Assembly: GCA_016699385.1 (NCBI GenBank)
Contig: CP064974.1
Location: 339,042 to 403,041 of the forward strand
Source of the DNA: Candidatus Moraniibacteriota bacterium
GTDB lineage: Bacteria; Patescibacteriota; Minisyncoccia; Moranbacterales; UBA1568
DNA length: 64,000 bases
Reading direction: 5' to 3'
The translations under genes and the position numbers were made by a program. Positions 7,105-61,896 of this stretch are shown in pieces (the first letter of the stretch is position 1; every line of letters starts with the position of its first letter). The notes under the pieces are model-generated. The model made no database searches. It saw only the letters and a program-made list of their open reading frames with translations, and had not been told where the DNA came from.

Positions 7105-7162
7105 GCATCGTATCACTGTAGTGGGTACTGCCAATAGCTCCTCAATTACGTACAACTTAATG

Positions 7163-7297: not shown

Positions 7298-7852
7298 ATG
7301 GAACGAACATTTAAGATGTTGCTCGTGGATGATGATACAGATACGCGGAGCTTGTATGCTGAAGTGTTTCAGGCAGCTGGTTTCGAAGTCCGAGAGGCAA
7401 AGGATGGACTTGAAGGACTCGAGATGGCAACATCTGATCGTCCGGATGTGGTTTTCACGGGTATCATTATGCCACGAATGGATGGTTTTGCACTCACAGA
7501 GGCATTGCGAAGCAATGTGGTCACTTCGTCGATTCCCATTGCTTTCTCCTCACACTTAGGGCGACAAGAAGATCAGCAGCGAGCCAAGGAACTTGGTGTT
7601 GATGAGTTTATCGTCCGAGATGTTGTGACGCCGAATGAAGCTGTAGCACGTATTCAATCGCTCGTGTCTCATAGCGAGTATATGATTGCGTTTGATATCC
7701 GAGCACTTGATGCGCAGAAGCTGGCAGCTGATTTGCGTCTGAATCCAAATTTTCTTTGCTCAGAGAATGGCGGTCGACAATTTGCCCTGCGTCTCAAGGT
7801 GAAAAACACTTCGACGAGAACATTTGAGGCAGAGTTTGTTTGTATTCCATGA
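7298..7852 (+). CDS. Response regulator (REC domain) with an uncharacterised C-terminal domain
   Basis: N-terminal CheY-like receiver with the acidic pocket LLVDDD, phospho-acceptor Asp in MPRMDGF, and the conserved Ser/Lys region. The ~60-aa C-terminal extension has no recognisable output domain. No histidine kinase is nearby. Confidence 0.7.
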   Translation: MERTFKMLLVDDDTDTRSLYAEVFQAAGFEVREAKDGLEGLEMATSDRPDVVFTGIIMPRMDGFALTEALRSNVVTSSIPIAFSSHLGRQEDQQRAKELGVDEFIVRDVVTPNEAVARIQSLVSHSEYMIAFDIRALDAQKLAADLRLNPNFLCSENGGRQFALRLKVKNTSTRTFEAEFVCIP

Positions 7853-7881
7853 GCGGCAGTTGACTCTTTTCTTTTCTTCTT

Positions 7882-8676
7882 ATGGATACAAGTATCGCTC
7901 ATGCACTGCTTCTTGGAATCGTGCAGGGGCTTTCGGAATTTCTGCCCATATCGAGTTCGGGGCATCTGGTTATTCTCCCGTGGATTTTTGACTTCTCAGA
8001 TCCCGGGCTCTCTTTCGATGTGGCGCTTCATGCAGGGACGCTCATCGCGGTTCTCGGATACTTTTGGCGCGATTGGTGTAACATCTTTCATCTTCGAGAT
8101 GATATGCCGCAGTATCGCAGCGTGCCGAACTTATTACTCTTCTTGGTCGCAGCAACGGTTCCCGGAGCAATAGCGGGTGCACTTCTTGAAAAGCAAGCAG
8201 AGACTGTCTTTCGCGATCCACTTCTTATTGCGACGACGCTGTTCACCTTTGGTGCATTGCTTCTCTTGGCCGACAAACGGGGAAGCAAGGTGCGCTCTGT
8301 GGAGAAGATTACTTTGCGAGACGCGCTTGCTATCGGGTGTGCTCAGGCGCTCGCCATTGTGCCGGGTGTTTCGCGCTCGGGCATTACCATTACGGCGGCG
8401 CTTGCTCGTGGTATTGATCGCGCTTCGGCTGCTCGATTTTCCTTCCTACTCTCGACGCCGATTATTTGCGCAGCCCTCCTCGCAAATGCACGAGCGCTTT
8501 TTGCTGCCGGCATTACACTTCCATTTATTGTGGGCGTGCTGTCATCGGCAGTCTCCGGATATTTTGCCATAGCCTCTCTCATACGATTTGTTGAACGAGC
8601 AAGTTACCGCGTATTTTTCTGGTATCGTGCGGCGATTGCGCTCATTATTGTTTCTTTTATCTTTCTGCACGTATGA
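7882..8676 (+). CDS. uppP: Undecaprenyl-diphosphate phosphatase (UppP/BacA)
   Basis: 264 aa with 8 TM helices and BacA motifs (GISRSG, SSSGHL-like). Overlaps folD as ATGA. Confidence 0.88.
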   Translation: MDTSIAHALLLGIVQGLSEFLPISSSGHLVILPWIFDFSDPGLSFDVALHAGTLIAVLGYFWRDWCNIFHLRDDMPQYRSVPNLLLFLVAATVPGAIAGALLEKQAETVFRDPLLIATTLFTFGALLLLADKRGSKVRSVEKITLRDALAIGCAQALAIVPGVSRSGITITAALARGIDRASAARFSFLLSTPIICAALLANARALFAAGITLPFIVGVLSSAVSGYFAIASLIRFVERASYRVFFWYRAAIALIIVSFIFLHV

Positions 8677-9736: not shown

Positions 9737-10510
9737 ATGGCAAAAGTAGTCACACTGGTTAATCAAAAAGGTGGGGTAGGGAAGACAACCTCGACCATCA
9801 ATATCGCCCGCTACCTCGCGGATTCTGGGAAGCGCGTGCTTCTTATCGATCTCGACCCACAGGCAAATGCTTCATCTGGCATTGGTGTTGATTCGCGATC
9901 GCTTGAGAAAACGCTCTATCATGCACTTCTTCTCGGTGAGCGACTCGAAAATGTTGTCCTTGCGACGCCGACTCCCAATCAGCATCTTTTGCCGTCATCG
10001 CAGGATTTGGCAGGGGCGGAAGTTGAAATGATGAATATCGAGGGGCGTGAATATCTTCTCTCGAAACTGGTCGCGCGTCTGCGACCGTACTATGACTATA
10101 TATTGATAGACAGTCCGCCGTCTCTCGGGCTTCTTACTGTGAATGGTCTCACGGCGAGTGATGAGGTGATTGTTCCTGTGCAGACCGAGTACTATGCGCT
10201 TGAGGGATTGAGCCAGCTCCTGTCAACGATCGACCTTGTGCGCGAGCGACTTCGCCCCGAGCTCAAAATAATGGGCGCGCTCCTCACTCTCTATGATCGC
10301 CGGAATCGCCTCGCGCGTCAGGTGGTGCAGGAGGTGACTGATCATTTCCCCGGACCCGTTTTCAAGAGCGTTATCCCGCGCTCCATTCGCCTCGCTGAGG
10401 CGCCGTCCTACGGCAAATCCATCCTCGATTTCGATGCTTTTTCGAAAGGCGCTCGTTCCTACAAAGCCGTCGTTCGAGAAATCATTGACCGCGAACGAGA
10501 GGATAAATAG
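9737..10510 (+). CDS. parA: ParA/Soj-family partition ATPase
   Basis: 257 aa with the deviant Walker A KGGVGKTT and ParA family motifs. No parB lies adjacent in this window. Confidence 0.85.
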   Translation: MAKVVTLVNQKGGVGKTTSTINIARYLADSGKRVLLIDLDPQANASSGIGVDSRSLEKTLYHALLLGERLENVVLATPTPNQHLLPSSQDLAGAEVEMMNIEGREYLLSKLVARLRPYYDYILIDSPPSLGLLTVNGLTASDEVIVPVQTEYYALEGLSQLLSTIDLVRERLRPELKIMGALLTLYDRRNRLARQVVQEVTDHFPGPVFKSVIPRSIRLAEAPSYGKSILDFDAFSKGARSYKAVVREIIDREREDK

Positions 10511-19320: not shown

Positions 19321-20133
19321 ATGACCTACGAATCATTACTTTCGATTGTTCACAAAAAATGGGGGAGTATTCTCCTTTCAGGGCTTCTTGTGGGGTCGCT
19401 TGCATTTTTCTCACTTGTTTTTTTCTCGAAACACTTCAAAGTGACGACTGATTTCCTGGTCGTGCAAACTGGCACTGGGCAGTCGCAGGATTTTTATTCG
19501 ATGCTTAAGTCGTCCGAATATCTTGGAAAGGTCTTGTCCGAGTCAGTACAGAGTGAAAAGTTTATTGGTGCTGTCGTGGAGACAGGCGGTGTCGATGGAA
19601 ACTTCTTGCCGGGAAATCCCAAGGATCGGCTCGACACGTGGGAGAAAATGGTGAAGGTCACTAATAATCCCGATGTCGGCACACTTCACATAGAAGTGTA
19701 TGACAATAATGATCGTGACGCACTTCATATCGCGCAGGCAGTAGGACAAGTTTTGACCGAACGAAATGCGCTCTTCCGAAGTGGTGATGAAAAAAGTGTC
19801 GAAATCCGCACCCTCTCCGGTCCCATCGTCGAGAAGAATCCAGATATACAACGGATGTTTCTTTCGGCGGGCGCAGGATTTTTCTTCGGAATTTCTTTGT
19901 TTTTGCTTTTTTCGCTCATGAAGGCCGAACGAAAAATGCAAATGCTTTCTTTGTATCAAGGTACTCCTTCACGAGAGATACCGATTTCACCAATGGTCTC
20001 TCCACTGAATAGCATAGCCACCTTACAGCACGAAGAAAAGCAGGAGAAAAACGAAGACACGAATATTCAGACAAAACCGATTTCACAACGTATCTATTCA
20101 GACACTCGCTTGATATTCGATGAAAAGCAATAG
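19321..20133 (+). CDS. Wzz-like polysaccharide co-polymerase (PCP) family membrane protein
   Basis: TM helix, then a ~200-aa extracytoplasmic domain, then a C-terminal TM helix with a G-rich motif (AGAGFFFGISLFLLF). This is PCP/Wzz topology. Start taken at the internal ATG (MTYESLL...). Confidence 0.45.
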   Translation: MTYESLLSIVHKKWGSILLSGLLVGSLAFFSLVFFSKHFKVTTDFLVVQTGTGQSQDFYSMLKSSEYLGKVLSESVQSEKFIGAVVETGGVDGNFLPGNPKDRLDTWEKMVKVTNNPDVGTLHIEVYDNNDRDALHIAQAVGQVLTERNALFRSGDEKSVEIRTLSGPIVEKNPDIQRMFLSAGAGFFFGISLFLLFSLMKAERKMQMLSLYQGTPSREIPISPMVSPLNSIATLQHEEKQEKNEDTNIQTKPISQRIYSDTRLIFDEKQ

Positions 20134-20273: not shown

Positions 20274-21068
20274 GTGAGGAGATTGAAAATGAAAATGGTA
20301 CTGATTATTCTATTGGTCTTGCTGGGCGGTTGCTCAGCGATACCAGCGAAAGACTTCCTTGGTATTACAGGAAAGGAAGATGTGCCGGAACGTCCCATAG
20401 AAGCGGTGTCCATGCAATTTCCAGGGCAGGTTTCTGATGTTGATGGGTATAAAATCCCTATTCCGCCCGAGTGGCAGGAACGGGATGTTGTCTGTCGGAC
20501 ATTCGAAAACTTTGAAGGGAAAGATGCTGAAGTATGTCGAAAGACATCGCGAGTCTTTGTGGATGGTGCCAAATGCTCTGCTTTTATAGCGGATGGATAT
20601 TGGTATGTGTTTCTTCCGAGAGGAAGGAATTTCAGCATACTTGTTTTCCCTGCAGCTAAAGGAGGGACGAGTGAGAATAATAAGCCGTTCATTGTGAGAA
20701 AAGAGGTTGTGCATAAACTCGACTCAAAGGAGATTCGAGAGGTGTATAATCATGTTGCAGACACGTTTCCGTACCAATCGAAACCGATAGAGGATTCGGG
20801 TGTTTCATTGCTCTTTGGGCAAGATGCCCTTGAAGTTCTATCGGTTCCTGCGCTCACTACAGCAAAGGAACGTATGGCTTATTGTGGGCTCGCTTCCGTA
20901 TCAAGCACCGAGATTATCGGTTTGATGCATGCTAATCCAATGGCGGCAATCCCAAAAGCATGGGCTGCCATTTGTTCCGTGTTGACGGAGCCAAACCTCC
21001 TCGTAAAAGAGGAGACATCTCGAAAAGTCCAAAGCGACGAAGGCATCGCCTTCACTGGAGACAGGTAA
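20274..21068 (+). CDS. Lipoprotein, function unknown
   Basis: Signal peptide with lipobox (LLGGCS). No recognisable domain. The stop overlaps the start of the next gene (TAATG). Confidence 0.5.
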   Translation: MRRLKMKMVLIILLVLLGGCSAIPAKDFLGITGKEDVPERPIEAVSMQFPGQVSDVDGYKIPIPPEWQERDVVCRTFENFEGKDAEVCRKTSRVFVDGAKCSAFIADGYWYVFLPRGRNFSILVFPAAKGGTSENNKPFIVRKEVVHKLDSKEIREVYNHVADTFPYQSKPIEDSGVSLLFGQDALEVLSVPALTTAKERMAYCGLASVSSTEIIGLMHANPMAAIPKAWAAICSVLTEPNLLVKEETSRKVQSDEGIAFTGDR

Positions 21069-22909
21069 TGAACGTGAAAAAGGTTATCGCAGTACTGTTT
21101 ATGGTACTTGCGTGGTGTTTATCGGACGTTGCGTATAGCGAGACGATTACCGTCAAGCAAGGCGACACGCCATCTGATCTTGCCGCGAAATATTGTGGTG
21201 GTGCGAAGAACTGGAAACAACTCTGGAGTGGTGATGCTCGGAAACTTCCAGTGGGAGAAGTCATCGCGCTTCCAAAGGAATGTGGAACGACGCGTCATGA
21301 AGAAGAACCTTCTTTGACGCCGACAGTTGAAGGGAAAAGTGGCGCTCGGGTATTTAAGCATCCGGGAGCAAAGCCGCTTTGCCCGACATTCAAGAAAGAT
21401 CCTGAGAGTTGTCGAGAAGTCTTTGATAAGGCTCTCGCGCAGAATGGATTTGAAGAGAAGGAGAGAGCTGCGATTGTTAAAAGAATCGTGACTGGCGATA
21501 CTACGGACGCTGCCCGTCCCAACGGATATATTTGGGACCGCTTTATAAGTGGCAAGGGCGATGTGTGGGGAACGACCGAAATTGGTGTTCCTGGTGGAAA
21601 TGTCGCTATCAAGGTATGTCCGCCGATTGGGAAGAAGCAGGTAGATGTCGTGGTTGCCTGTGGCAATCTTGGCATCAACACCGTGATTGTTCCGGAGCCA
21701 GTCGTTCCAAAGCAGTCGGAAGTTGTTCAGTCGCCACCGCAACGCGGATGCAAGTTGGACTGGCTCTTGATGGGTCAGTATGCTCGCGGCCGGGACATGC
21801 GAAATGTTTCCGGTAAAGGACAGGCAACTTGTCAGTTTCAAATCGACGAGCATTGGTCGGACGGACCGCTCGTGACGGGAGGTATCTCTCGCTATCATGG
21901 AGGATCATGGGCGGAACCATCGTGGTTTGTGGGGCTCGGCAATCGTGTGCAGGGCCGTGGAGTATGGGGTGTTGACCAAGTGGAATTGGACACTTCACTC
22001 GCATATGCGACGACGCGCGGTGGAGATGGCATGGATGTTCGGAAGCCACCCATTAGCGGGCTGGATTTCTTGCTCAACATTAATGTCAAGAAGTATTTCC
22101 CGCTTAGCGGCGAAAAGGATGATGATCGAAAGAAAGGCGCTGCTTCTGCGGATAATACGCCCGTTTCGGCGGAAGACATTTCGTTTTCGTTTATTAGCGG
22201 GGATCCGAAGGAGCAGGCAGTAATAAGTGATCGCGTGTTGGCGGAATTTTCTCTTTATGGGACATTCCCGCTTACGCATAAGTCCGGTCCGGTGTATTGG
22301 AGGGATAGGATTGTTGATTCCGACAGTCGCCACCGAGTTCTCGGGGCTTCTGCACGGCTCGGGTGGGAGCTTGAGGGCGTAAATTTCGTTCCCGAGGTAG
22401 AATTCGGGATATGGAACACTAGTGGCATTCAGCATCCCTGGGGCGTTGAAGGCACTGTCGGTGTAGCTACGAGGGATAGGTTTTTCCGAGTGCATGCCGG
22501 CATTGGTTCTGTCCTTGGCGCAACCGACGGAGTGTACGGGGTTGTAAAAGCTGAAATAAATGGAGGAGGCAAGTGGCTATTTGAGAGCTCCAAGAAATCT
22601 GTTAACGCTCTCACGGTAGGTGCAACGGATTCTCGCATCGCTCTTGGTTTGGATGCTCAGCCGAATCCTTCAATCACAACATCTCGGGAGATAAACCTCA
22701 AGAAGGCAGTAGAAGTGCCCAAGGGGGATGTCCCTCGGATGGCGGTATCAAATCCGATTCAGAAGGCGCAACAAGAAATTGCTCCGTCTTCCGGATTTAA
22801 CAATAAGTCTGGCGCAACAACGCGTGTTGCTACAAAGGGAAACGCTTCAGTTTCCACTGCGCCTATTTCTGCTCAAGCAACTCCTTGGGAGAATAGCTGG
22901 AACGGATAA
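21068..22909 (+). CDS. Secreted protein with an N-terminal LysM-like module and a large beta-rich C-terminal domain
   Basis: Signal peptide (MNVKKVIAVLFMVLAWCLSDVAYS), then a LysM-like stretch (TITVKQGDTPSDLAAKY...). The rest is Gly/Trp-rich and uncharacterised. The ORF track begins at 20960, but a signal-peptide-bearing ATG at 21068 is the likelier start. Confidence 0.5.
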   Translation: MNVKKVIAVLFMVLAWCLSDVAYSETITVKQGDTPSDLAAKYCGGAKNWKQLWSGDARKLPVGEVIALPKECGTTRHEEEPSLTPTVEGKSGARVFKHPGAKPLCPTFKKDPESCREVFDKALAQNGFEEKERAAIVKRIVTGDTTDAARPNGYIWDRFISGKGDVWGTTEIGVPGGNVAIKVCPPIGKKQVDVVVACGNLGINTVIVPEPVVPKQSEVVQSPPQRGCKLDWLLMGQYARGRDMRNVSGKGQATCQFQIDEHWSDGPLVTGGISRYHGGSWAEPSWFVGLGNRVQGRGVWGVDQVELDTSLAYATTRGGDGMDVRKPPISGLDFLLNINVKKYFPLSGEKDDDRKKGAASADNTPVSAEDISFSFISGDPKEQAVISDRVLAEFSLYGTFPLTHKSGPVYWRDRIVDSDSRHRVLGASARLGWELEGVNFVPEVEFGIWNTSGIQHPWGVEGTVGVATRDRFFRVHAGIGSVLGATDGVYGVVKAEINGGGKWLFESSKKSVNALTVGATDSRIALGLDAQPNPSITTSREINLKKAVEVPKGDVPRMAVSNPIQKAQQEIAPSSGFNNKSGATTRVATKGNASVSTAPISAQATPWENSWNG

Positions 22910-23149
22910 ATCACAGTAAAAAGAACGCCAGAATGGGAATCCATTCAAGGCAATTCAAAAATCCTTGTCTAAACTTGACAAAAAACTCGGGCTGTGCTAA
23001 CTATAACTAGTTAGAACTTCAGCCCCCTTAACAGAATTTTCAATCGTATCATCGATTGACGGTTCTGCAGAGGAATGATTGCAAAGGATTGTTGTTTAAA
23101 AATTATTTTCTTTTTTCTTTTTCCACGGCATTCCTAAAAGGAGGAAGCC

Positions 23150-23668
23150 ATGAAGAAAAATATGTTGGTAGTTGCCACCACCGCCACCTGTCTTTGTTTC
23201 GGTCTCGTCACATCCGTTTTTGCGGAGCCGAGCTGCAAGATTGTCACAAATGGCAGTCAGGTCACGGTAGCAATTTCGGATACAGGTGTCGTGTGGTCGG
23301 ATGGACAAAAGCCGCCCCAAGGGTGGGTTTCCTATCCAGGAACTGGTCGTGCGGGCGACATAGCCGCAAGCTGCTCCGACAACGGGGCGAAGTGCGCCGC
23401 TGCCAAATGGTATCTGCGTTTCGCTGATGCCAGTCAGGGCTGGCCGGTTCTCGATTCCGACTCTCGGGTAGTGAAATGCGTCTATAACAACGGCGCAATT
23501 AGCTGTCACTTCACCCTAACCAGTAACATGAAGACTTCGAATGGTCAGGGGCGTATGCACTATGCCGCCAAGATAGGTGACCAGGTGGTTGCGGGCTATC
23601 AGCCGCAGTCCGGATGCGCCGTCGACAAGGAAAGCATCGGCGGTCATCCTCACACCGTGATCAAGTAA
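23150..23668 (+). CDS. Small secreted cysteine-rich protein
   Basis: Strong Shine-Dalgarno (AAAGGAGGA) 7 nt upstream. Signal peptide, then a 10-Cys mature region with no known domain. Confidence 0.5.
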   Translation: MKKNMLVVATTATCLCFGLVTSVFAEPSCKIVTNGSQVTVAISDTGVVWSDGQKPPQGWVSYPGTGRAGDIAASCSDNGAKCAAAKWYLRFADASQGWPVLDSDSRVVKCVYNNGAISCHFTLTSNMKTSNGQGRMHYAAKIGDQVVAGYQPQSGCAVDKESIGGHPHTVIK

Positions 23669-23738: not shown

Positions 23739-25124
23739 TTATGCGATCTTTGAAAGAGATTCTTTGTCCATGAGAATATTCTTGAGTCCCAAGAAAGTGC
23801 CAAATAGTATGAAAAATACCCATTGAATGGGAGTATTTTTGTATATATTGTCGGAAAGTGATGCTATCAATATTGTGCTAGCATAAAAAGAGAAAACGAT
23901 AGCGATATCTTTGTAGGGTTTTGGAAGTGTGAAAAGCTTGCGTATTTCTTGTGCAAGGAGAGTGAGGTACATGATAAATATGGAGAGTCCAAGCCATCCG
24001 TCTTCAACAAAGAATTTTACGAAGTCGTTGTGGGAATCGGTACTTCCGAATTGGATGCCTCGTATTTTTTCGGCATACATGCTGAATGTGTCCGGTCCAA
24101 CGCCGAAATACTGCTTGCCGTCCATGCGGAGTTTTGCGGTAACATCGCTCCATATGCCTTCTCGCCAGGAAACGGAGCTGTCGGCGCTTGTCTGGAAACT
24201 TTCGAGTACGCGATTCTGAACCGAGGGAAGCGCTACGAGAAGAATTATCGGTATGATGATAAGTGGAAGAATGAGCGCTCGATAGCGCCAGAGAGCGAGT
24301 GCGAGCAAGAAAAGAAACAACGCGATCCATGCGACTCGGGTGTATGTGAGGATGAGAAGTGCCATGGAGGAAAGTAGGATTACGGGGAGCCAGAAGATTT
24401 CGAGAGCGTCTATTGCACTGTTTTTCTGGGTTGTTAAGGAAAGATTTTCTTTGAGAAAGTATATAAGGACAACGATGACTGAGAGAGAGTAGAGAAAAAT
24501 AGCAAGAGCATTCGGATGAGCGAATGTCCCGTAAATTCTGGGAATGCCAACGACATTGTCTGAGAGTCCAATCCCAAAAAATGCCTGACGAGTTGCTTCA
24601 AGCATTGGAATGATGCCGGACAATAGGAGAAGATATAGAACTTTCTTCACGTCTTTTAGAGAAGTCACAGATATGAAAGCAAGGAAGCTTATGGAAAAAA
24701 TGGAAATCAATCTCGCGATTTCTTGGACACTCGTGAGGGGGCTCATGCTCCATGGCGTGAGAATAATGTTCATGCCGATAAGCAAAGAAAAAGGTTTCCA
24801 AAGTACAAAGCGCACGAGCTTTTTGTTGTGGAGAATAAAAATAGCGATGCTTGCGAGAAGGAGGAATACGCCAAGCATCTGCGAGAGACTGAGGGATATA
24901 TCCTTGCCAACTGTCAGGAAGGTGTTCTCAGAAAGGTGATCGAGAGACATGCGAGTGACAAGGAGTATCCCCAAGAGAGCGATTGGTTGCCGAAGCGCAG
25001 AAAACGAAATGCAAGCAAGTGTTAGTGCTATTGAAAAAATAGGACTCTGGTTGAGAAAAGCGGTTGCGAAAAGGGAAAAGAAGAATACACTGAAACAGAA
25101 GAGAATTTTCTTTAGGGAAATCAC
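23739..25124 (-). CDS. O-antigen polymerase (Wzy)-like polytopic membrane protein
   Basis: 461 aa with ~11 TM helices and a large extracytoplasmic loop, within a cluster of glycosyltransferases. Confidence 0.55.
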   Translation of the reverse strand: MISLKKILFCFSVFFFSLFATAFLNQSPIFSIALTLACISFSALRQPIALLGILLVTRMSLDHLSENTFLTVGKDISLSLSQMLGVFLLLASIAIFILHNKKLVRFVLWKPFSLLIGMNIILTPWSMSPLTSVQEIARLISIFSISFLAFISVTSLKDVKKVLYLLLLSGIIPMLEATRQAFFGIGLSDNVVGIPRIYGTFAHPNALAIFLYSLSVIVVLIYFLKENLSLTTQKNSAIDALEIFWLPVILLSSMALLILTYTRVAWIALFLFLLALALWRYRALILPLIIIPIILLVALPSVQNRVLESFQTSADSSVSWREGIWSDVTAKLRMDGKQYFGVGPDTFSMYAEKIRGIQFGSTDSHNDFVKFFVEDGWLGLSIFIMYLTLLAQEIRKLFTLPKPYKDIAIVFSFYASTILIASLSDNIYKNTPIQWVFFILFGTFLGLKNILMDKESLSKIA

Positions 25125-25235
25125 AGCAGAGTATAGAATTCAATTTATACAGAAAGGATATATCATTTTCCAGTTTATTGCTACAATACACAGCATCTCT
25201 TCTATTTGTATAGTTTTGTCCAAAATCGCGGAGCA

Positions 25236-26456
25236 ATGAGAATACTTTTGATTCATAAACGCCATTTTCTGGCGGGAGGAGCGGAAAGAGCCTATCTTGA
25301 GATGGCGGATGTTTTGATGCGCGCGGGGCATGAGGTTGCGTTCTTTTCCATGAAACACCCTAAGAATCATCCAACACCCTGGGAAAAATATTTCGTTGAC
25401 ACAGTAGATTATCAGGATTCGTCGATGAATTTTCTTGAAAAAATCAGGACGGTTGGAAAGATATTGTGGAATCGGCAGGCAGAAAAGAATATGGAACGGA
25501 TTATCCTTGATTTCAAGCCGGATATTGCACATGTTCATAACATTTTCCATCAAATATCTCCTTCTATATTCCGTCCACTCAAAAAGGCACATGTCCCCGT
25601 CGTGATGACATTACATGACTACAAACTGATCTCTCCGAATTACTATTTATTCGTTCGTGGGCGCATATGGGATCCGAAACGAGGTTCCTTATGGAAGTGT
25701 GTCAGAGACCGATGCGTTAAAGATAGTATTTGGAAGAGTTTGGTTTGTGCTATTGAGGGTTTGTTTCATCGAAGTATTCGTGCATATGATTCTATCCAGG
25801 CATTCTTTTCTCCTAGCCACTTCCTTGTAGAGAAATTCCGCGAATATCAATTTTCGAAAGAAGTGCAGTACCTGCCTAATCCTTTAGTTCCATTTCCTGA
25901 TGATCTCTCGTTCCTGCCCCTATCCGACGAGGCTCCATTTGTTTTTATTGGACGCCTTTCTCCGGAGAAAGGCGTTGATACGATTCTTCGCGCTGTTTCT
26001 CTATCAAGGGATATTGCAAAGGTTCGCATCGTTGGAGATGGTCCAGAAATGGAGTCTCTCCAAAGGCTTGCACGAGATCTTGGTGTGGAACCGCGCGTGG
26101 AGTTTTCCGGGTATCTTTCTGGAGAAGTGCTTGAAGAAGCAAGAAAGAATGCGCGAGCTATTATCATTACCTCTCTTTGGTATGAGAATATGCCATATGC
26201 GCTTACGGAGGCACTTGGCGCCGGTAAAGTTGTTATTGCTTCTCGTATCGGTGGAATTTCGGAACGAATCCAAGATAGTAAGAATGGATTTCTATTTCAT
26301 CCTGGCGACGAAAAAGAGCTTGCTGAAAAGATGCAATTAGCGAGCCGAGTCGATTCAGCTAAGATTGGTGGTCTTGCACGAGCATCTATTAGTGGTCTGC
26401 GCGAAGAAAAGTTTCTTGAAGAACTTCTCGCTGTGTACAGGCAGTTGGTTCCATAA
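25236..26456 (+). CDS. Glycosyltransferase family 4
   Basis: GT-B fold with the GT4 EX7E region (ITSLWYENMPYALTEALGAG). Start refined to the ATG at 25236 (MRILLIHK...). Confidence 0.8.
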   Translation: MRILLIHKRHFLAGGAERAYLEMADVLMRAGHEVAFFSMKHPKNHPTPWEKYFVDTVDYQDSSMNFLEKIRTVGKILWNRQAEKNMERIILDFKPDIAHVHNIFHQISPSIFRPLKKAHVPVVMTLHDYKLISPNYYLFVRGRIWDPKRGSLWKCVRDRCVKDSIWKSLVCAIEGLFHRSIRAYDSIQAFFSPSHFLVEKFREYQFSKEVQYLPNPLVPFPDDLSFLPLSDEAPFVFIGRLSPEKGVDTILRAVSLSRDIAKVRIVGDGPEMESLQRLARDLGVEPRVEFSGYLSGEVLEEARKNARAIIITSLWYENMPYALTEALGAGKVVIASRIGGISERIQDSKNGFLFHPGDEKELAEKMQLASRVDSAKIGGLARASISGLREEKFLEELLAVYRQLVP

Positions 26457-26501
26457 TGTTTTTGGGCTATCTTTTTAGAAAATCCATCGAAAGGAAAAAA
26501 T

Positions 26502-26527
26502 AAAACCGCCTGATGGCGGTTTTATTT
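26502..26527. terminator. Bidirectional rho-independent terminator between convergent genes
   Basis: Perfect hairpin aaaaccgcc-tgat-ggcggtttt with A and T runs on both sides. The minus-strand gene's stop codon lies within the stem. Confidence 0.75.
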
Positions 26528-27334
26528 GTGAATAGCTGTGTTTTGGATGGGGCTGTTTTTTCTATGGTAGACGTATGGATCTATTTGAAGTATGAGATGA
26601 ACCAGTGCTTCTTTTATGCAGAGGAGGGAATAGACGAAAACGTAGTTCCACGTTCGCCTCAATCTGCGTTGAGGTTGAAGCAAGAGTCGCCACAGCCATT
26701 CAAGACCGAACTTTCGGATGATGAATGGTGCTCGTTTCTGCTTGCCGGTAAGGAAGTCAAATGCCCCTCCTACTCCCATAGCAAGACAAACAGTGCTTCC
26801 GGGTATGCTTTGGAGTTGTGCCAGGGAAATTTCCTGAAGTCTTCCACCAAAATTGGAGAGAACGACGGAATGATTAGATGCCTTTCTCAACGATGTCTTT
26901 ATGGAAATCGGCGAATTTACTGAAACATCGGATCCGAACACTCGTAGTCTCGGAAATTTTTTCTTGATAGCAGACTTTGTTTCTTGAAAGGTGCTTAACC
27001 CACAACTATTGACCAAAAGAAAGACGGAAAGATTTGTATGCTCCGAGATTTCGAGTACGTACTCCATGAAGTCAGATCCGGGTACTCGTCCTTTGGGAAT
27101 TTTCCCTCTAAGAAGAAGAGGAATGTATATTCCAATCCCATCAATAGTCGAGAGGTCAGCATTATTAATGGCATCAAGGAATTCATTATCCCTCTGAGCC
27201 GTCATGATGAAATCGGGATTTATCGTGACAATCCGATGGAATTCCGTAGAACGCAAACTATTTTCTACGAAGCGCTTTGCTTCATCGATGGAGGTGTTCT
27301 GAATTGTGACGCCAAGGGCGCAAATACGGTCCAT
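26522..27334 (-). CDS. WecG/TagA/CpsF-family glycosyltransferase (GT26)
   Basis: 270 aa with family-typical blocks (TINPDF..., STIDGIGI, NFGGRLQE...). Consistent with UDP-ManNAc(A)/GlcNAc-type transferases acting on lipid-linked acceptors. Confidence 0.75.
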   Translation of the reverse strand: MDRICALGVTIQNTSIDEAKRFVENSLRSTEFHRIVTINPDFIMTAQRDNEFLDAINNADLSTIDGIGIYIPLLLRGKIPKGRVPGSDFMEYVLEISEHTNLSVFLLVNSCGLSTFQETKSAIKKKFPRLRVFGSDVSVNSPISIKTSLRKASNHSVVLSNFGGRLQEISLAQLQSIPGSTVCLAMGVGGAFDFLTGKQKRAPFIIRKFGLEWLWRLLLQPQRRLRRTWNYVFVYSLLCIKEALVHLILQIDPYVYHRKNSPIQNTAIHK

Positions 27335-27530
27335 ATGGTAACTTCAGTAAGTTCGAGAGCTGTATTGTTGCGAACGTATTAGTGTAGCAAAAATCAGGAT
27401 AATAGTCAAGTGGGCAGACGAGGTAAATAGTCGTGTTTTGTATGTATGCATTTTTTCATCCATTGACAAACCTGCTTTATTTTGCTATTGTTCACCGTTA
27501 ACTCTTTATGCCCTTCAGGGTCTGCGTTTT

Positions 27531-28481
27531 ATGAAGAATAATGTGAAATCATGGCTTATTGAAGCAGGAATATCGATTTTTATCGTAGGGACTATTGCGC
27601 TTCCGTTTTTTGGTTTTGCGCGAAGTGGTGACAAGATTTATGTAGACAAAGACGCTTCCGGTAGGGAAGATGGCTCGTCTTCGCATCCATACAAGACAAT
27701 TTCAAGCGGGCTTGATAAAGCAAGGGGTGGTGATGAGGTTATTGTGGCCTCCGGAACGTATAAGGAGCGAGTTACTATCCCGAGTGATGTGAAGCTCTCT
27801 GGCTCAGGACAGCAAAAAACTTTTATAAAATCCGATGACAAGGATGATGCTGTTGTGGAAATGAAAAGCGGATCAAAGCTATGGGGGTTTACTGTTGAAA
27901 ATGGGAGAATGGGGATTTATGTCAACAAAGATGCAAAGGTGGATATTGTAGGGTCTAGAATTCGTGACAATAGACATGAAGGTATCTTTGTGGAAAAAGG
28001 CGATCGAACCGATAGAAAGCTTGTGAGTATTTCAAAGGTTGAGATTATTGGTAACGGTTGGTCCGGAGTATATTCGAAGACGCGAAAAATTTCGATTACG
28101 GAATCCGACATAAAAGATAATGGTAAGAATGGCGTTGTATTCGAATCTGGTGTTCGTGCATGGATTGACAACAATTCAATTAGCGAGAATAAAGGATCTG
28201 GTCTTGTAATGAATCTTGATGGCGCCGATGTGACGGTTGCGAGCAAGAATACATTTCGCAAAAATGATCGTGAAGGAATCGAAGTGAGTTCGTATGGCAC
28301 AACGGGCACAATCGATATTAAGAAATCCCGTCTTTCAGAGAATGGGCACTATGGTGTCGCGAGAATTTCTCGGACGGCAAGTGCTTCCGTGTCGATATGG
28401 AACGGATTGGTGATTGAGGGAAATAATACTTTCTTCGGAAACGGTTTGGGGAATACGTCGCCAATTGTGAGAGGATTCTAA
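27531..28481 (+). CDS. Secreted right-handed parallel beta-helix repeat protein (NosD/pectate-lyase-like)
   Basis: N-terminal TM or signal anchor, followed by repeated ~22-aa beta-helix turns (I.DN...GI.V..., ENKGSGLVMN...). Start refined to 27531. Confidence 0.6.
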   Translation: MKNNVKSWLIEAGISIFIVGTIALPFFGFARSGDKIYVDKDASGREDGSSSHPYKTISSGLDKARGGDEVIVASGTYKERVTIPSDVKLSGSGQQKTFIKSDDKDDAVVEMKSGSKLWGFTVENGRMGIYVNKDAKVDIVGSRIRDNRHEGIFVEKGDRTDRKLVSISKVEIIGNGWSGVYSKTRKISITESDIKDNGKNGVVFESGVRAWIDNNSISENKGSGLVMNLDGADVTVASKNTFRKNDREGIEVSSYGTTGTIDIKKSRLSENGHYGVARISRTASASVSIWNGLVIEGNNTFFGNGLGNTSPIVRGF

Positions 28482-28564
28482 ATATCTGTCATCTGGTAAT
28501 TGCGTTCCTTACAAGACAAAAACAAAAACGAAAACGAAGGGGAAATTTCGTAACGACTTCTTGT

Positions 28565-29767
28565 ATGCGCATTGCGTTTATCGGGCAGAAAGGCATCCCA
28601 GCAAAATCCGGAAGTGTTGAGAAATATGTTGAGCGAATTTCGGTGCGCATGGCGGAGAAGGGTCATGATGTTTTTGTCTATGCGCGGGCGCACTATACCG
28701 ATCCGGAACTTCGTGCGTGGAAAGGGGTGCATATTATTCATGTACCGAGTATTCCAACGAAGCACTTGGATGCTATTTCGCATACCTTTTTTGCGACAGT
28801 GCACGCGCTTTTCCATCGTTACGATATCATTCATTATCAGGCGGTTGGACCGTCGATGCTCTCGTTTATTCCCGCAATGCTTTTGCGTCATGCGCAGGTA
28901 GTGTCTACCTTTCACTGTCGTGACTATTTTCATCAGAAGTGGGGGTGGATTTCACGGAGGGCACTTCGTTTTGGTGAGTGGGTTGCCTGTCGCGCTCCGA
29001 AGAAGACTATCGTTGTTTCGAAGGAGCTTCTCGAGTATACGAAGAAAAACTATGGCCGTCATGCGGAGTTTATTCCCAATGGGGCAAATATTTCCGAAAA
29101 GGCGATAGCGACAACACTTGGTGAATTTGGACTTCGTGAGGGTCGCTATGTGCTTTCGGTTGGGCGGCTCGTCGGACACAAAGGCGTGCACTATCTCATA
29201 AAGGCGTTTCTTGAGCTTGAGGATACGAACAAATTGCCGAATAATACGAAGCTTGTCATCGTCGGTTCGCATGCGAATACGAAGGACTACGAATCCTATC
29301 TCCATCTCATGGCGAAAGGACGAGAGAATGTTATCTTTCTCGGTGAACGCTTCGGACGAGAGCTCGAGGAATTGTTCTCGCATGCAGGACTCTTTGTGCA
29401 GCCGTCGGAATCCGAAGGCATGCCGATTGTTCTCCTCGAATCGATGGCACATGCCTTGCCGACACTGGCAAGTGATATCCGTGTGCATTGCGAAGTGCTC
29501 TCGGGTGTCGGGCTACTTTTTCAGAACAAGAACGTAGCAGACCTCCGTGACAAGATGGCCTTCCTCCTGAATGCGCCGGAAGAGGGGAGTCGACTTGGGG
29601 TTGCGGCGCAGAATCGTATTCGAAATGAATATTCTTGGGATGCTATTGCTGAGCGAACGTTATCTGTGTATGAGTCAATCCTGCCGCAGACGAAGAAGCT
29701 CAAGCGATTAAATTTCCGGAAGCGACTTCATGCTCAGCATATCCGTTCAATCGGAACCGAATTATGA
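28565..29767 (+). CDS. Glycosyltransferase family 4
   Basis: GT-B fold with the EX7E-like region (FVQPSESEGMPIVLLESMAHALP). Confidence 0.8.
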   Translation: MRIAFIGQKGIPAKSGSVEKYVERISVRMAEKGHDVFVYARAHYTDPELRAWKGVHIIHVPSIPTKHLDAISHTFFATVHALFHRYDIIHYQAVGPSMLSFIPAMLLRHAQVVSTFHCRDYFHQKWGWISRRALRFGEWVACRAPKKTIVVSKELLEYTKKNYGRHAEFIPNGANISEKAIATTLGEFGLREGRYVLSVGRLVGHKGVHYLIKAFLELEDTNKLPNNTKLVIVGSHANTKDYESYLHLMAKGRENVIFLGERFGRELEELFSHAGLFVQPSESEGMPIVLLESMAHALPTLASDIRVHCEVLSGVGLLFQNKNVADLRDKMAFLLNAPEEGSRLGVAAQNRIRNEYSWDAIAERTLSVYESILPQTKKLKRLNFRKRLHAQHIRSIGTEL

Positions 29768-31188
29768 TGAAATTCCTCGCCAATTTTTTTCAGGCATTCC
29801 CGCGGTATTTCTTTTTGCTCTTCGTGGTGTTTTTCGCAGTGGGATTTTTCGTTTTCTATGAATCATTCCGCATGTATCGTGCGGAATCGGAATTAATCGT
29901 GATTTCTCATGGACCTACGGTCTCTGCCGATGAGGTTGCTGTGACACTCTCGCACATTCCTTCGACGCTCTCTTTCTATGATCGACTCCGAGAGGATCAC
30001 AGCAATGTGAGTGATCCGTGGACAGGAGACTCTCCTGCTGATCGGAAGCTCGCGTGGAATCGTGTCATTGATGCGGCGTCAGTTTCTGGGAGCAGCGTGA
30101 TTCATCTGTCGGTTGTCGGCAGTGATCCATCACAGGCGAGTGCGTTGCTGAGCGCTTCTATCGAGACGCTCTATGGTTTCTCGGGGCGGTTGTATAATCG
30201 GAATACAGAGGCAGAGATGCGGCTTCTCGAAGACGTTATCGTTCGTTCGGTGGTGACAAATGCCTGGGCACTTTTCTTGCTTAGCGCTGTATGTTCGGCG
30301 CTTGCAGCGCTTCTCATTTCGTTGCTCTTGCAGAATTCGGAGAACTTTTTGAAACGAGCAACGCTTCCCGATATTTCTCTCTTTCGCGCAAAGTATCTTC
30401 CTGCACATTTGGGAGGGCAAGGGAAAGAGGGGATTCGTCCGGTAGGATCATTTCCGGATATTACGCAAGAAGAGAGTCATTTGCCATCTGAAGTGTCCAT
30501 AATTTCAGGCGAATCGGCATCTTCGACACTCTCGGCACCTCCAACTGAAGAAATATCTCCATCGCCTCATGTGAATGATATTGATGAGTTAGCATTATCG
30601 GTTGCAGAGCCTATAGAAAACAATGTAGACAAAGAATCTTCACCAAGTAGAGCCTCTTCAGAGTCTGTTTCAGGAGAAGAGAAAAGAGAAAGCTATGAGT
30701 CGAGAATGAGTGATGAACCGGAAGATATATGGGAGAAACCTCGTTTTGCTCCCGTAGGGAGAATGAGAATCGGCATGAAGCAGACAGGAGAGGGAGGTTT
30801 TTCTCAGAAGAATGCTTCCGAAGTTGCCCCTGCTGATGTTCGAAATGACACGGTGTCTGAAAAAATGCCGGAGAAGATTTCTGCAGAAGAGAAAAGGCAG
30901 GAAACAGTATCGGAGCAAGTCAGAACAACCTCTCATCGAAATGAAACGAGAGCGGGTGTTCCGGGGAATCTCACGACGGTTTCGGCACAGGATTTTACCT
31001 GGGATAAGTTTCTCTTTCAGGATGAGGAGAATAGTTCGAAAAAAGAGGAGAAGAAAGAAAGAGTGGATGAAGGAGAGTCAGAATCGAAGACAGAAGTTGT
31101 TTCAGCTTTGGAAAGCGCAGTGAAACACGAGCCGACGCCCGAAGAACTCAAGGCGCGACTCAATCAACTCTTACGAGGCGAGCTCTAA
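29764..31188 (+). CDS. Wzz-like PCP membrane protein fused to a ~290-aa Ser/Glu-rich disordered tail
   Basis: TM1, a ~150-aa extracytoplasmic domain, then TM2 (ALFLLSAVCSALAALLISLLL). After TM2 comes a long low-complexity acidic/Ser-rich tail ending in a short helix. Overlaps the upstream GT4 (ATGA). Confidence 0.5.
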   Translation: MMKFLANFFQAFPRYFFLLFVVFFAVGFFVFYESFRMYRAESELIVISHGPTVSADEVAVTLSHIPSTLSFYDRLREDHSNVSDPWTGDSPADRKLAWNRVIDAASVSGSSVIHLSVVGSDPSQASALLSASIETLYGFSGRLYNRNTEAEMRLLEDVIVRSVVTNAWALFLLSAVCSALAALLISLLLQNSENFLKRATLPDISLFRAKYLPAHLGGQGKEGIRPVGSFPDITQEESHLPSEVSIISGESASSTLSAPPTEEISPSPHVNDIDELALSVAEPIENNVDKESSPSRASSESVSGEEKRESYESRMSDEPEDIWEKPRFAPVGRMRIGMKQTGEGGFSQKNASEVAPADVRNDTVSEKMPEKISAEEKRQETVSEQVRTTSHRNETRAGVPGNLTTVSAQDFTWDKFLFQDEENSSKKEEKKERVDEGESESKTEVVSALESAVKHEPTPEELKARLNQLLRGEL

Positions 31189-31209
31189 GAATCTGTTTAT
31201 AATCGTCAT

Positions 31210-32595
31210 ATGAAACGCTACTCGTGGAAATTTTGGATACTGTTTTGGTCAATATCACTCCTCTTATTGTCGAGTTGGTTTTGTTTTCTCGAAATTCGAA
31301 ACGGTCACTGGAAACTTTTTGATGTACCGACGCGCATATTGCCCGTTTCAACAGAAACACGTAAGGATATGCGCGCGCTTTTGTCGATTGCCGACTTCGT
31401 ACTCAAGAAAGATGATGTGACGCGAACCTATCTCGTCCTCTTTCAAAACAATTATGAGCTTCGTCCGGGCGGGGGATTTATCGGATCATTTGGTATTGTA
31501 AAAATACGAAATGGCGAACTGCTCGATTTCGCCGTGCATGACACGGGGAACTTTGACGGGCGTATACCCTCGACGGTTTCGCCACCCTATCCGATGAAGG
31601 AATTGCTTCGTATCGATTCATGGAAACTGCGCGATTCGAATTATTCTCCGGACTTCCCGACCAATGCTCGGCAGGCGGAAACCTTTTACCAGATGGGCGA
31701 AGGCAGTGAATCATTCGACGGCATTGTCGGTATTACGACAGATGTCTTGGTGTCGTTTCTTGGTGTCACTGGTCCGGTCGAAGTACCGGGATATCCGGGC
31801 ACGTATGGTGGAGAGAGCGCCGTGTGGGATCTCGAATATCAGGTGGAGAAGGGCTTCATTGATCAGGGTATCGAGCGGGGGGATCGGAAGTCGATGATGA
31901 ATCTCTTGGGACTCCAGGTACTTGATCGTCTGAAATCTCTGAGCCTTACGGATCGGTACCGCTTGTTTGAGGTGGCACTTGCCGATCTTCATGCCAAGGA
32001 TATCCAGCTCTTCTTCGATGATGAGGGCGTGACGCAGAAAATTCAGGATGCCGGTTGGGACGGATCGATTAATCAGACATGGAAGAATGATTCTTTCCTT
32101 GCTGTCGATGCAAATTTGGGCGCGTGGAAGAGTGACTACTTCGTGAAACGTTCATACGAGTATACGGTAGATTTTTCTGGCGAAAAGCCTCAGGCGCGTT
32201 TTGCTCTTACTTATAATCATACGGCGACTGAGAAAGATTGGCGCGTCAACAATTACCAGTCATTCCTTCGTCTCTATGTGCCGAAGGGGAGCTGGCTTGT
32301 TTCGTCGGAGGGATTCTTGGGCGACACGACATTTGGTGATGAACTTGGCAGGAAAACTTTTGGCGGTATCGTACAAGTCCCCCTTGGAACAGAGAAAACA
32401 GTTGCGTTTACCTATACGCTTCCCGATACGGTATCGTCGGCGTTCTATGAACTTGATATTGAGAAGCAGCCGGGATTGCATCGCGTCCCTGTTTCAGTGA
32501 CGGTTATCAAGAAGGATGGATCGAAAATTCAGAAGCAATTTGTCTTGGATCGAAATGTACGGATACTTGCAACCGGCGAGCTGATTGAGCCATAG
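31210..32595 (+). CDS. DUF4012-like membrane-anchored protein
   Basis: N-terminal TM helix followed by the motif FQNNYELRPGGGFIGSFG, which I recognise as characteristic of DUF4012 proteins found in cell-wall glycopolymer loci. The family assignment is from memory and unverified. Confidence 0.45.
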   Translation: MKRYSWKFWILFWSISLLLLSSWFCFLEIRNGHWKLFDVPTRILPVSTETRKDMRALLSIADFVLKKDDVTRTYLVLFQNNYELRPGGGFIGSFGIVKIRNGELLDFAVHDTGNFDGRIPSTVSPPYPMKELLRIDSWKLRDSNYSPDFPTNARQAETFYQMGEGSESFDGIVGITTDVLVSFLGVTGPVEVPGYPGTYGGESAVWDLEYQVEKGFIDQGIERGDRKSMMNLLGLQVLDRLKSLSLTDRYRLFEVALADLHAKDIQLFFDDEGVTQKIQDAGWDGSINQTWKNDSFLAVDANLGAWKSDYFVKRSYEYTVDFSGEKPQARFALTYNHTATEKDWRVNNYQSFLRLYVPKGSWLVSSEGFLGDTTFGDELGRKTFGGIVQVPLGTEKTVAFTYTLPDTVSSAFYELDIEKQPGLHRVPVSVTVIKKDGSKIQKQFVLDRNVRILATGELIEP

Positions 32596-35888: not shown

Positions 35889-36079
35889 AACTTGTTGTAT
35901 GAGCAAATCCTTCAAGGTTGCGCAATTGGGAGGCAAGGTGATATGAGCAAAAGCCAAAAGAGTTGCTGACGTTCATGGTTTGGGAGTGACGTGGATTATT
36001 CGCGATGTTGTTCTTGGTAACTGAAGCGTCATGGGAGGGAGGTACAATAAGAGAAGGCAAGAGAAGCTGTGTTTTTTCT

Positions 36080-36625
36080 ATGAATTATCGCCGAAAACAA
36101 TTGAGTGCAGAGGATATTGAGCCAGTACTGCTTCGAATACAGCCGTCTCCGAAATACGGTGGCATTGGAGTTTTTGCTCTCCGCGATATTAAAGGGGGTA
36201 CGATATTATGTGATGTTGAGAAAATTAGCGAGGAAGTTTTCGTCCCCTGGGAAGAATTTGCAAAGATAGATGCGGCTACGCGATCGTTTATGATTGATTT
36301 TTGTGCCGAGGACAAGGATGGTTTCTATAGCCCGATTGATCTGAACTATCTCACCATTCCGGGACACATGAATCATCACTGTGAGGCGAATGTAGGATGT
36401 GATGCGGACGATAACTTCGTCGCAATACGAGATATCAAGAGGGGAGAAGAAGTGTGTCTTGATTACGCCTTCGTTATATCCAACCCTGCCTATACTATGA
36501 AATGCGCATGTGATTCCAAGAAATGTCGAGGGATAGTCACAGGAAATGACTGGAAAAACCCCGCCTTCCGGAAAAAGAATTCCAATTTTCTCTCATCAAA
36601 TGTGAGGAAATTTGCAAACAAATAA
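36080..36625 (+). CDS. SET-domain protein (putative protein-lysine methyltransferase) with post-SET Cys cluster
   Basis: Contains NHHCEAN (NHSCxPN-type), EEVCLDY (ELxxDY-type) and the post-SET cluster CACDSKKC. The ORF opens at 36005, but the likely start is the ATG at 36080. Confidence 0.7.
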   Translation: MNYRRKQLSAEDIEPVLLRIQPSPKYGGIGVFALRDIKGGTILCDVEKISEEVFVPWEEFAKIDAATRSFMIDFCAEDKDGFYSPIDLNYLTIPGHMNHHCEANVGCDADDNFVAIRDIKRGEEVCLDYAFVISNPAYTMKCACDSKKCRGIVTGNDWKNPAFRKKNSNFLSSNVRKFANK

Positions 36626-61887: not shown

Positions 61888-61896
61888 AGAAAGTGC

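Follow-up and report, generated by a model that had tools for sequence, protein, structure and literature searches.

Does a cluster of seven genes in a Candidatus Moraniibacteriota genome encode one pathway for building a cell-surface polysaccharide, and by what kind of machinery? The envelopes of the candidate phyla radiation (CPR; Patescibacteria), to which the Moranbacteria belong, are almost unstudied; most of these cells live as epibionts, and contact with the host is mediated by their surface. The genes lie between positions 23,739 and 32,595 of a 64,000-nucleotide stretch of contig CP064974.1, the whole of which was analyzed and is called the window below. They encode, in order, a Wzy_C-family membrane protein, a glycosyltransferase of family 4 (GT4a), a WecG/TagA/CpsF-type glycosyltransferase of family 26 (GT26; WecG below), a beta-helix protein, a second GT4 (GT4b), a protein with the fold of polysaccharide co-polymerases (PCPs; PCP1), and a DUF4012 protein. 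We consider it reasonably probable that the locus encodes the membrane-associated apparatus of a Wzy/PCP-type route to a cell-surface polysaccharide carried on a lipid (undecaprenyl diphosphate) in a monoderm-like CPR bacterium. A Wzy_C-family protein and a PCP-fold protein are encoded together, and the gene set is syntenic across the whole lineage, which argues for one pathway.

Gene content and conservation of the locus

A first-pass annotation, made from the sequence, had listed these seven open reading frames (ORFs), and all of them were found in the window in the order and at the coordinates that it gave. Pfam and NCBIfam profile hidden Markov models (HMMs) were used, with the Pfam scans covering the main window ORFs of at least 150 amino acids (aa), and they confirmed the Wzy-like, the two GT4, the GT26, the beta-helix, and the DUF4012 calls. 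Together with lineage-wide synteny, these families support the repertoire of a lipid-linked polysaccharide pathway that had been proposed; the combination that would have spoken against it, failing Wzy- and Wzz-like assignments together with glycosyltransferases from unrelated pathways, was not observed.

A scan of a genome collection returned 80 loci, all of Moranbacteria/Parcubacteria type, with a DUF4012 identity of 47–89%, and the DUF4012 and PCP homologs come from Candidatus Moraniibacteriota. ORFs of the related loci were classified by jackhmmer profiles seeded from the window proteins, and the synteny counts refer to loci with enough flanking sequence. Three long Moranbacteria contigs share the order Wzy_C, GT4, a variable opposite-strand gene, beta-helix, GT4, an unannotated protein of 362–474 aa, and DUF4012. 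As observed in the wider set, a PCP gene was immediately upstream of DUF4012 in 72 of 76 loci, the run GT4-PCP-DUF4012 was kept in 70 of 74, and the full run beta-helix-GT4-PCP-DUF4012 in 52 of 67. A Wzy_C gene was located no more than 10 kb upstream of DUF4012 in 47 of 55 loci.

The degree of conservation was uneven. Compared with the relatives L002, L003, and L004, identities were 88, 73, and 56% for DUF4012 and 85, 73, and 53% for GT4b, and they were 44, 60, and 40% for the beta-helix protein and 46, 28, and 29% for the PCP; contig CP064989.1 is a relative with an 88% identical DUF4012 protein. The GC content was 0.43 across 24–28 kb of the window, the half with the Wzy_C, GT4a, and WecG genes, compared to 0.47–0.49 in the flanks. 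This dip (24001–28000) fits horizontal exchange of the variable half. The uneven conservation and the GC dip thus indicate a conserved core and, attached to it, a repeat-unit half that varies and is probably exchangeable; by analogy, this is the architecture of serotype loci. The clustering recurs in ~80 genomes, but the locus is not a compact, self-contained island, and WecG is accessory. These results define a lineage-wide conserved glycan-assembly core, as opposed to a strain-specific capsule island.

Some related loci departed from this arrangement. L041 carries two DUF4012 genes ~8 kb apart, and in L061 the module is rearranged as PCP1, beta-helix, GT4a, Wzy_C, and PCP2, then DUF4012. L005, L007, L013, L015, and ~30 more loci come from third-party annotation (TPA) metagenome-assembled genomes named "uncultured Bdellovibrionales", which carry the Moranbacteria-type locus with DUF4012 proteins 50–89% identical; this label is probably wrong.

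The PCP-fold protein and its paralog

PCP1 (29764–31188, plus strand) had been called a PCP/Wzz-like protein with a disordered tail. No curated HMM matched it, and the call was upheld by the AlphaFold model, by Foldseek, and by hhalign to a weakly CpsC-like ORF. Its topology comprises a first transmembrane (TM) segment at aa 16–34 (14–35 in the model), an alpha/beta ectodomain of ~130 aa, and a second TM segment at aa 167–185 (167–198 in the model). In the model, aa 1–200 had a predicted local distance difference test score (pLDDT) above 90. The top Foldseek matches in the PDB were KpsE (E 1.5e-6, TM-score 0.55 on the target) and Wzc (E 5e-5). The longest helix of the ectodomain spans aa 122–143, and the long helical hairpin of PCP-1/2a/3 proteins was not present; in having such a short ectodomain, PCP1 resembles the Gram-positive PCP-2b proteins.

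The disordered tail was evident in the model as a low-confidence region at aa 215–450. The tail is about 270–280 aa long, rich in Glu, Pro, and Ser, and without a domain, and it closes with a conserved helix at aa 456–471 (nucleotides 31129–31176), of which aa 459–471 had a pLDDT of ~92. The conserved tail motifs were PEDIWEKP, PGNL, DFTW.KFLF, and a terminal EPT.EE(Y/L)K.RLN.LL.G. We infer that the tail may be a flexible tether that ends in a docking helix for a cytoplasmic partner.

A profile search with PCP1 gave 48 homologs, none of which has a Pfam domain. Using HMMER against 1.84 billion cluster representatives, the family comprised 1051 clusters (50% identity) at E ≤ 1e-3; among the 150 clusters listed, all had E < 1e-48 and most matched the profile end to end. 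Tails in the family were 116–277 aa long, with one truncated sequence of 73 aa. This describes a PCP-fold family of roughly a thousand sequence clusters that escapes the present profile libraries and whose members bear a conserved C-terminal helix on a long disordered tail.

A second Wzz-like protein had also been noted at 19321–20133 (plus strand; PCP2). Its match to TIGR01006 (CpsC/MPA1; E 1e-9) reached only 38 bits compared to the cut-off of 296, but it aligned by hhalign with the PCP1 family profile at a probability of 95.5% (E 1.4e-8). TM segments were found at aa 28–46 and 190–208 of the TTG-start ORF, with a short ectodomain and a short tail between and after them, and a homolog was present upstream of Wzy_C in 8 of 55 related loci. 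The profile alignment indicates that PCP2 is a distant paralog of PCP1. The PCP fold of PCP1 is thus supported by modelling, its membership resting on two things, the predicted fold and the paralog link. An AAA_31 protein at 9737–10510 was considered as a bacterial tyrosine kinase (BY-kinase) partner and rejected, as it is a canonical ParA/Soj; the window has no other P-loop ATPase of that superfamily.

The Wzy_C protein and the variable half

The Wzy_C gene (23739–25124, minus strand) matched PF04932 with 54 bits, compared to a gathering score of 31.7. Its product is a polytopic membrane protein with at least 10 hydrophobic segments and a loop of ~100 aa (aa 306–406) in the region of the Pfam match (aa 250–384). 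BLASTP showed 54% identity to the L003 counterpart and no match at E ≤ 1e-5 to the Wzy_C proteins of L002 and L004. Such hypervariability between close relatives is the typical pattern of repeat-unit-specific Wzy polymerases. Because of this pattern and the linkage to a PCP, the Wzy_C protein is predicted from sequence to be the repeat-unit polymerase.

GT4a (25236–26456, plus strand, within an ORF at 25206–26456) matched Glycos_transf_1 with 108 bits and also Glyco_transf_4, both above the gathering scores; its likely start is the MRILLIH at codon 11 of the ORF. Identity was 27% to the positional counterparts in L002 and L004 and 44% to that in L003. Neither GT4a nor GT4b gave an equivalog-level NCBIfam match. 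In the complete Moranbacteria genome CP064994.1 (L003/L008, 1472–3970), the orthologs of Wzy_C and of GT4a are both broken into a pair of ORFs, which reflects either pseudogenisation or assembly frameshifts.

The WecG gene (26522–27334, minus strand) matched PF03808 with 103.6 bits (gathering score 27.4) and TIGR00696 with 92.5 bits (cut-off 69), and it was below the equivalog cut-offs for TarA (91.5 vs 350) and WecG (86.4 vs 323). It was found in 3 of 55 related loci, as an accessory gene in a variable slot between the two halves that is occupied in 43 loci by an ADP-forming acyl-CoA-synthetase-like gene.

Three further ORFs without a family lie on the plus strand between PCP2 and Wzy_C, in 20274–23668 (20274–21068, ~21068–22909, and 23150–23668). 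Each has one N-terminal hydrophobic segment; the products are a protein with a lipobox (LLGGC), one of 614 aa whose C-terminal region is rich in Gly and Trp, and one of 172 aa that is rich in Cys. Pfam gave no match for them except LysM at E 0.041 (~21068–22909). Homologs were found only in L003, L008, and L038, and in a different subclade of Moranbacteria this position is taken by other secreted proteins, likewise conserved (L048, 535–3769). Whether these secreted ORFs are members of the pathway is uncertain.

The same ORFs would gain a role if the locus served protein O-glycosylation, with the Wzy_C protein as an O-oligosaccharyltransferase or ligase (PglL/WsaB/WaaL-like) that moves the lipid-linked glycan made by the GT4 and GT26 enzymes onto secreted proteins such as pilins, S-layer-like proteins, or those encoded upstream, and not onto further repeat units. 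The Pfam Wzy_C family spans polymerases, ligases, and O-oligosaccharyltransferases; three family-less secreted or lipoprotein ORFs adjoin the gene, and different ones take their place in other Moranbacteria; and a weaker Wzy_C-like gene at 2959–4602 would allow one polymerase plus one ligase. However, the PCP to which Wzy_C is tightly linked is the classical partner of a polymerase, Wzy_C is hypervariable between close relatives, against an identity of 53–88% for the remaining core, and a PDB sequence search with Wzy_C gave no match to any solved ligase or oligosaccharyltransferase. We regard this explanation as improbable and prefer a polymerase acting with a PCP.

The conserved core and its downstream genes

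The beta-helix gene (27531–28481, plus strand, within an ORF at 27438–28481) encodes a membrane-anchored right-handed beta-helix protein, with 62.5 bits to Beta_helix and matches also to NosD and DUF1565. The likely start at 27531 is also the one called for the gene on an identical Logan contig, and a protein that begins there retains an N-terminal membrane anchor, the single hydrophobic segment following M32. The identical gene in L001 carries a Pel9A-like beta-helix annotation. From these sequence features, the protein is predicted to be extracytoplasmic and to bind or modify glycan.

GT4b (28565–29767, plus strand) matched Glycos_transf_1 with 107 bits and Glyco_transf_4 with 78 bits, and its stop overlaps the PCP1 start by 4 nucleotides. 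A full-length match to the Cps2T rhamnosyltransferase model was weak (66 bits, cut-off 500). Weak matches were also obtained to the glycolipid-anchor GT4s (IagA/BgsA and Dgs) and to PimB-type enzymes, all far below the named-equivalog cut-offs, and a PDB sequence search gave generic GT4 matches only.

Downstream of DUF4012, many genomes carry the genes TrmD-FtsW-MurG-MurC-MurB, with FtsW no more than 3.5 kb away in 29 of 61 loci; in this genome, SecA is directly 3′ of DUF4012. The dTDP-rhamnose genes (RmlB/D/A) are directly downstream of DUF4012 in ~15 related loci, which suggests that part of the lineage has wall polysaccharides with rhamnose. Sugar-nucleotide genes, including rml, were not found in the window.

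Such surroundings invite the idea that beta-helix, GT4b, PCP, and DUF4012 work independently of Wzy_C on a glycolipid-anchored or peptidoglycan-associated, division-tied polymer (for example, a lipoglycan on an anchor made by GT4b), with the PCP tail recruiting cytoplasmic partners and Wzy_C/GT4a being mere neighbours. The core is indeed wider (70/74) than the Wzy_C linkage (47/55), the wall-synthesis genes come next in many genomes, the tail motifs and C-terminal helix suit partner binding, a flippase and a priming transferase were not found nearby, and GT4b weakly resembles anchor-type enzymes. However, those resemblances are all far below the equivalog cut-offs, 85% of the loci with sufficient flank still have Wzy_C upstream, and the pathways in which PCP proteins are known to take part are of the Wzy or the ABC-transporter kind. 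An independent core is thus unlikely in our estimation, and a Wzy/PCP-type pathway that includes the core remains the preferred reading.

The DUF4012 protein and its predicted LCP-like fold

The DUF4012 protein (31210–32595, plus strand) matched PF13196 with 88.5 bits, compared to a gathering score of 28. At E ≤ 1e-5, 1606 homologs were found, and the alignment of Moranbacteria orthologs showed a mean column identity of 69%. The family has been noted as enriched in CPR and Gram-positives, without an assigned function (PMC6744442). The AlphaFold model (pLDDT 85, predicted TM-score 0.84) showed an N-terminal TM helix, an alpha/beta domain at aa ~70–290, and a beta-sandwich at aa ~294–452. Foldseek matched it to LytR-CpsA-Psr (LCP) proteins, namely Cps2A with bound octaprenyl pyrophosphate (E 1.9e-3, probability 1.0, 246 columns), Lin1025, and TagV. 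An LCP-like (alpha-beta-alpha) fold of the DUF4012 ectodomain was found by two methods. LCP enzymes transfer undecaprenyl-diphosphate-linked glycopolymers to peptidoglycan, and their traits are an Arg triad plus Asp that bind pyrophosphate and Mg2+, and a hydrophobic polyprenyl tunnel (PMC7831098).

Sequence comparisons stood against this likeness. DUF4012 gave no Pfam match to the LCP family PF03816, and hmmsearch of the DUF4012 profile against the PDB returned nothing. With hhalign, the probability of a DUF4012-LCP relation was below 1% (0.1–0.5%), with thin and diverse profiles. The inputs were the Moranbacteria alignment against four PDB-derived LCPs, the N-domain only, and, against six LCPs, a 100-sequence alignment in which homologs from metagenomes, Rhodococcus, and Eubacterium were included. 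The conserved positions among the 100 diverse sequences were Q79, N80, E83, R85, G88, G89, N144, P147, F149, D170, G171, N302, K307, and D309. Thus R85 is the only Arg universal in the family, compared to the Arg triad of LCPs; R118, R141, and R226 were invariant within Moranbacteria only. Moreover, true LCP genes were found beside DUF4012 in 2 distinct loci among 80 metagenomic ones, indicating that DUF4012 need not replace an LCP; no LCP genes were found in the window or in 84 Moranbacteria-type loci.

Sequence homology between DUF4012 and LCP was accordingly rejected, as all profile comparisons were non-significant. A collinear motif pairing (GGF.G with GR.D; DGV...TGPV with D.YV...GGV) had an hhalign probability of ~0.1% and is not evidence. 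Equating the Moranbacteria "HDT" with the LCP "PRD" motif was dropped, since H110-D111 is not conserved outside Moranbacteria.

Gene neighbourhoods elsewhere place the family beside polysaccharide genes. A DUF4012 gene stands beside wzz in an exopolysaccharide (EPS) cluster of Bifidobacterium longum (PMC5412050). On the Rhodococcus qingshengii plasmid NZ_CP054209.1 (L085, 7543–13128), the gene for a 612-aa DUF4012 protein comes right behind those for a sugar transferase and a pair of ABC-transporter proteins, near rfbA/rfbB and a dTDP-4-dehydrorhamnose 3,5-epimerase-family gene, indicating that DUF4012 is not restricted to Wzy-type loci. Metagenomic neighbours were Wzz/AAA_31, Bac_transf, LMW-PTP, and MurJ; this census used crude ORF calling in high-GC contigs, and its low counts are qualitative only.

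Taken together, we conclude that DUF4012 is extracytoplasmic, has an LCP-like fold, and takes part in polysaccharide assembly, probably as an enzyme. On the basis of fold and gene linkage, we tentatively suggest that, once the lipid-linked polymer is complete, DUF4012 may act on it as LCPs do, for example, by transferring it to peptidoglycan. A broader proposal is more doubtful, namely that DUF4012 might be an unrecognised, highly diverged LCP-fold enzyme that, with a kinase-less PCP, would carry out terminal glycopolymer handling (peptidoglycan attachment or lipid-carrier release) in CPR and other monoderms, with the beta-helix-GT4-PCP-DUF4012 module, whose usual neighbours are FtsW-MurG-MurC-MurB, as core envelope machinery tied to the growth of the wall, in place of a capsule that the cell could do without. 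The LCP-like fold offers a testable structural hypothesis for DUF4012, and if the family were a glycopolymer transferase, polysaccharide loci in Actinomycetota, Bacillota, and CPR could be better annotated.

Proposed pathway and the points against it

The steps proposed here are based on established family functions; what was observed comprises family and fold assignments, topology, synteny, and mosaic structure. A transferase encoded elsewhere would prime the repeat unit; the presence of the GT26 suggests that the primer is GlcNAc-PP-undecaprenol, made by an enzyme of the WecA/TagO type. The lipid-linked unit would be extended in the cytoplasm by GT4b and GT4a, joined in this genome by the GT26, and a transporter encoded elsewhere would flip it. 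On the membrane's outer face, the Wzy_C protein would join the units into a polymer, with the two-TM, PCP-fold protein as co-polymerase and scaffold. Afterward, the anchored beta-helix protein may trim or modify the polymer, and DUF4012 may act on the finished lipid-linked product, possibly attaching it to peptidoglycan. The strain-variable Wzy_C-GT4a(-WecG) half would set the structure of the repeat unit, and the beta-helix-GT4b-PCP-DUF4012 half would be the lineage-wide core machinery.

Besides the DUF4012 results above, several observations weigh against this pathway. PCP1 had no Pfam or NCBIfam match, including Wzz (PF02706) and TIGR01006, and an HMM search against the PDB gave no match to PCP sequences; Wzz was the commonest sub-threshold match in its family, in 5 of 45 members with a best E of 0.012. 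No BY-kinase partner was found in the window, and no conserved gene of ~230 aa stands beside the PCP in the 84 loci. As noted, the Wzy_C family also includes ligases and O-oligosaccharyltransferases. The first-pass annotation had stated that the flippase and the initiating phosphoglycosyltransferase are not in the window, and the Pfam scans likewise detected none there. A Wzx/MOP flippase was also not found within 10 kb of DUF4012 in the 84 loci, which hold no unassigned 12–14-TM ORF of ~420–480 aa, their multi-TM neighbours being FtsW-sized or GT-C-sized. Neither the window nor the 84 loci, within 10 kb of DUF4012, yielded a homolog of a WbaP-type initiating transferase, and WecA/MraY-type initiators were not detected in the window scans, the related loci not having been searched for them. 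What is seen is thus an incomplete pathway, and its dependence on Wzx is an assumption.

Teichoic-acid polyol-phosphate enzymes (TagB/F and TarIJL) were not seen. UppP/BacA is encoded at 7882–8676 of the window, indicating that undecaprenyl-phosphate recycling is encoded in the genome. A chance neighbourhood of unrelated glycosylation genes is very improbable: the locus runs on both strands and different genomes have unrelated genes in its middle slot, but its order is conserved over ~80 species-level genomes and GT4b and PCP overlap by four nucleotides.

The locus type itself is ordinary and common; the leads that it gives are the fold link between DUF4012 and LCP and the unrecognised PCP family.

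Locus limits, signals, and other window genes

The locus is a lineage-wide conserved core plus a variable half, and its leftward extent probably reaches 19321. Its genes form at least three transcription units. A sigma-70-like promoter match (10/12 to the consensus) on the plus strand at 27463–27491, just 5′ of the ATG at 27531, is possibly the operon start for beta-helix-GT4b-PCP-DUF4012, judged from sequence. A consensus scan also placed a terminator-like 13-bp hairpin with T-runs, without strand assignment, at 26498–26527, between the convergent GT4a and WecG genes. Promoter and terminator counts in the region were no higher than in shuffled sequence, and no Rfam family or tRNA was detected within the locus by the corresponding scans.

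Near the start of the window, a GT4 gene (1723–2880) is followed by the ORF at 2959–4602 and then directly by PBP2 (4631–6532). This ORF, encoding 13 TM segments, had been taken for a second Wzy/ligase-like protein; it does match Wzy_C, but with 26.7 bits, below the gathering score. The 1723–8676 neighbourhood may serve another lipid-linked glycan step, separate from the first and linked to the synthesis of the wall. Another glycan-related neighbourhood lies at 46463–63552. It contains a 1521-aa protein with a C-terminal Glycoamylase domain (46463–51028, minus strand), a GH28 beta-helix hydrolase (56352–58046, minus strand), and three consecutive PMT_2/GT-C (ArnT/PMT-like) membrane glycosyltransferase genes (58067–59923, minus; 60124–61887, plus; 61897–63552, plus). 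A SET-domain protein (36005–36625, 44.7 bits) is encoded downstream of SecA and Ham1, and also in the close relative L002. Housekeeping genes identified by Pfam were ThyA, DHFR, PBP2, GreA, UppP, FolD, ParA, SMC, LysRS, SerRS, RRF, RseP, SecA, RF, FtsX, and Ddl.

Comparison with known systems

The closest systems are the Gram-positive Wzy-dependent capsule loci and the DUF4012-wzz EPS cluster of B. longum. In Streptococcus pneumoniae (cpsA-D plus wzy/wzx, with the LCP ligase CpsA, the PCP-2b protein CpsC, and the BY-kinase CpsD), a conserved regulatory and attachment block stands beside a variable glycosyltransferase/Wzy block, as it does here. Both kinds of locus also share a short-ectodomain PCP beside a membrane-anchored extracytoplasmic protein of LCP-fold type. 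However, the Moranbacteria locus is without a BY-kinase, a phosphatase, and Wzx, and a beta-helix protein belongs to its core, which is not the case in the pneumococcal type. Its PCP carries a disordered tail of 116–277 aa and a conserved helix, in contrast to the short kinase-activating tail of the pneumococcal type. Where streptococci have an LCP, there is DUF4012, with an extra beta-sandwich and no detectable LCP sequence similarity; this sandwich is conserved and carries N302, K307, and D309, and the Arg triad is not evident.

The EPS/capsular polysaccharide cluster of B. longum 105-A (priming glycosyltransferase, DUF4012, wzz; PMC5412050) likewise has DUF4012 beside a chain-length determinant in a Gram-positive type envelope. 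However, the B. longum DUF4012 protein is longer (~575 aa) and its gene adjoins the priming transferase, and its Wzz is a recognisable Pfam Wzz in a kinase-type partner context.

Enterobacterial common antigen and wall-teichoic-acid linkage (WecA/TagO followed by WecG/TagA; WzyE-WzzE) share a GT26 together with a polymerase and a PCP. Unlike in those systems, the GT26 here is accessory (3/55), no WecA/TagO or flippase is in the window, and the polymerase is of the Wzy_C family, as opposed to WzyE. Streptococcal and lactococcal rhamnose polysaccharide loci (the GT4s GacB/Cps2T plus rmlABCD) resemble it in the conserved GT4 with its weak Cps2T match and in the rml genes downstream in ~15 relatives; in contrast, those loci are ABC-transporter dependent, and the Moranbacteria window is without rml. 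Distinct to the Moranbacteria locus is its conservation across a whole CPR lineage, often beside peptidoglycan-synthesis genes.

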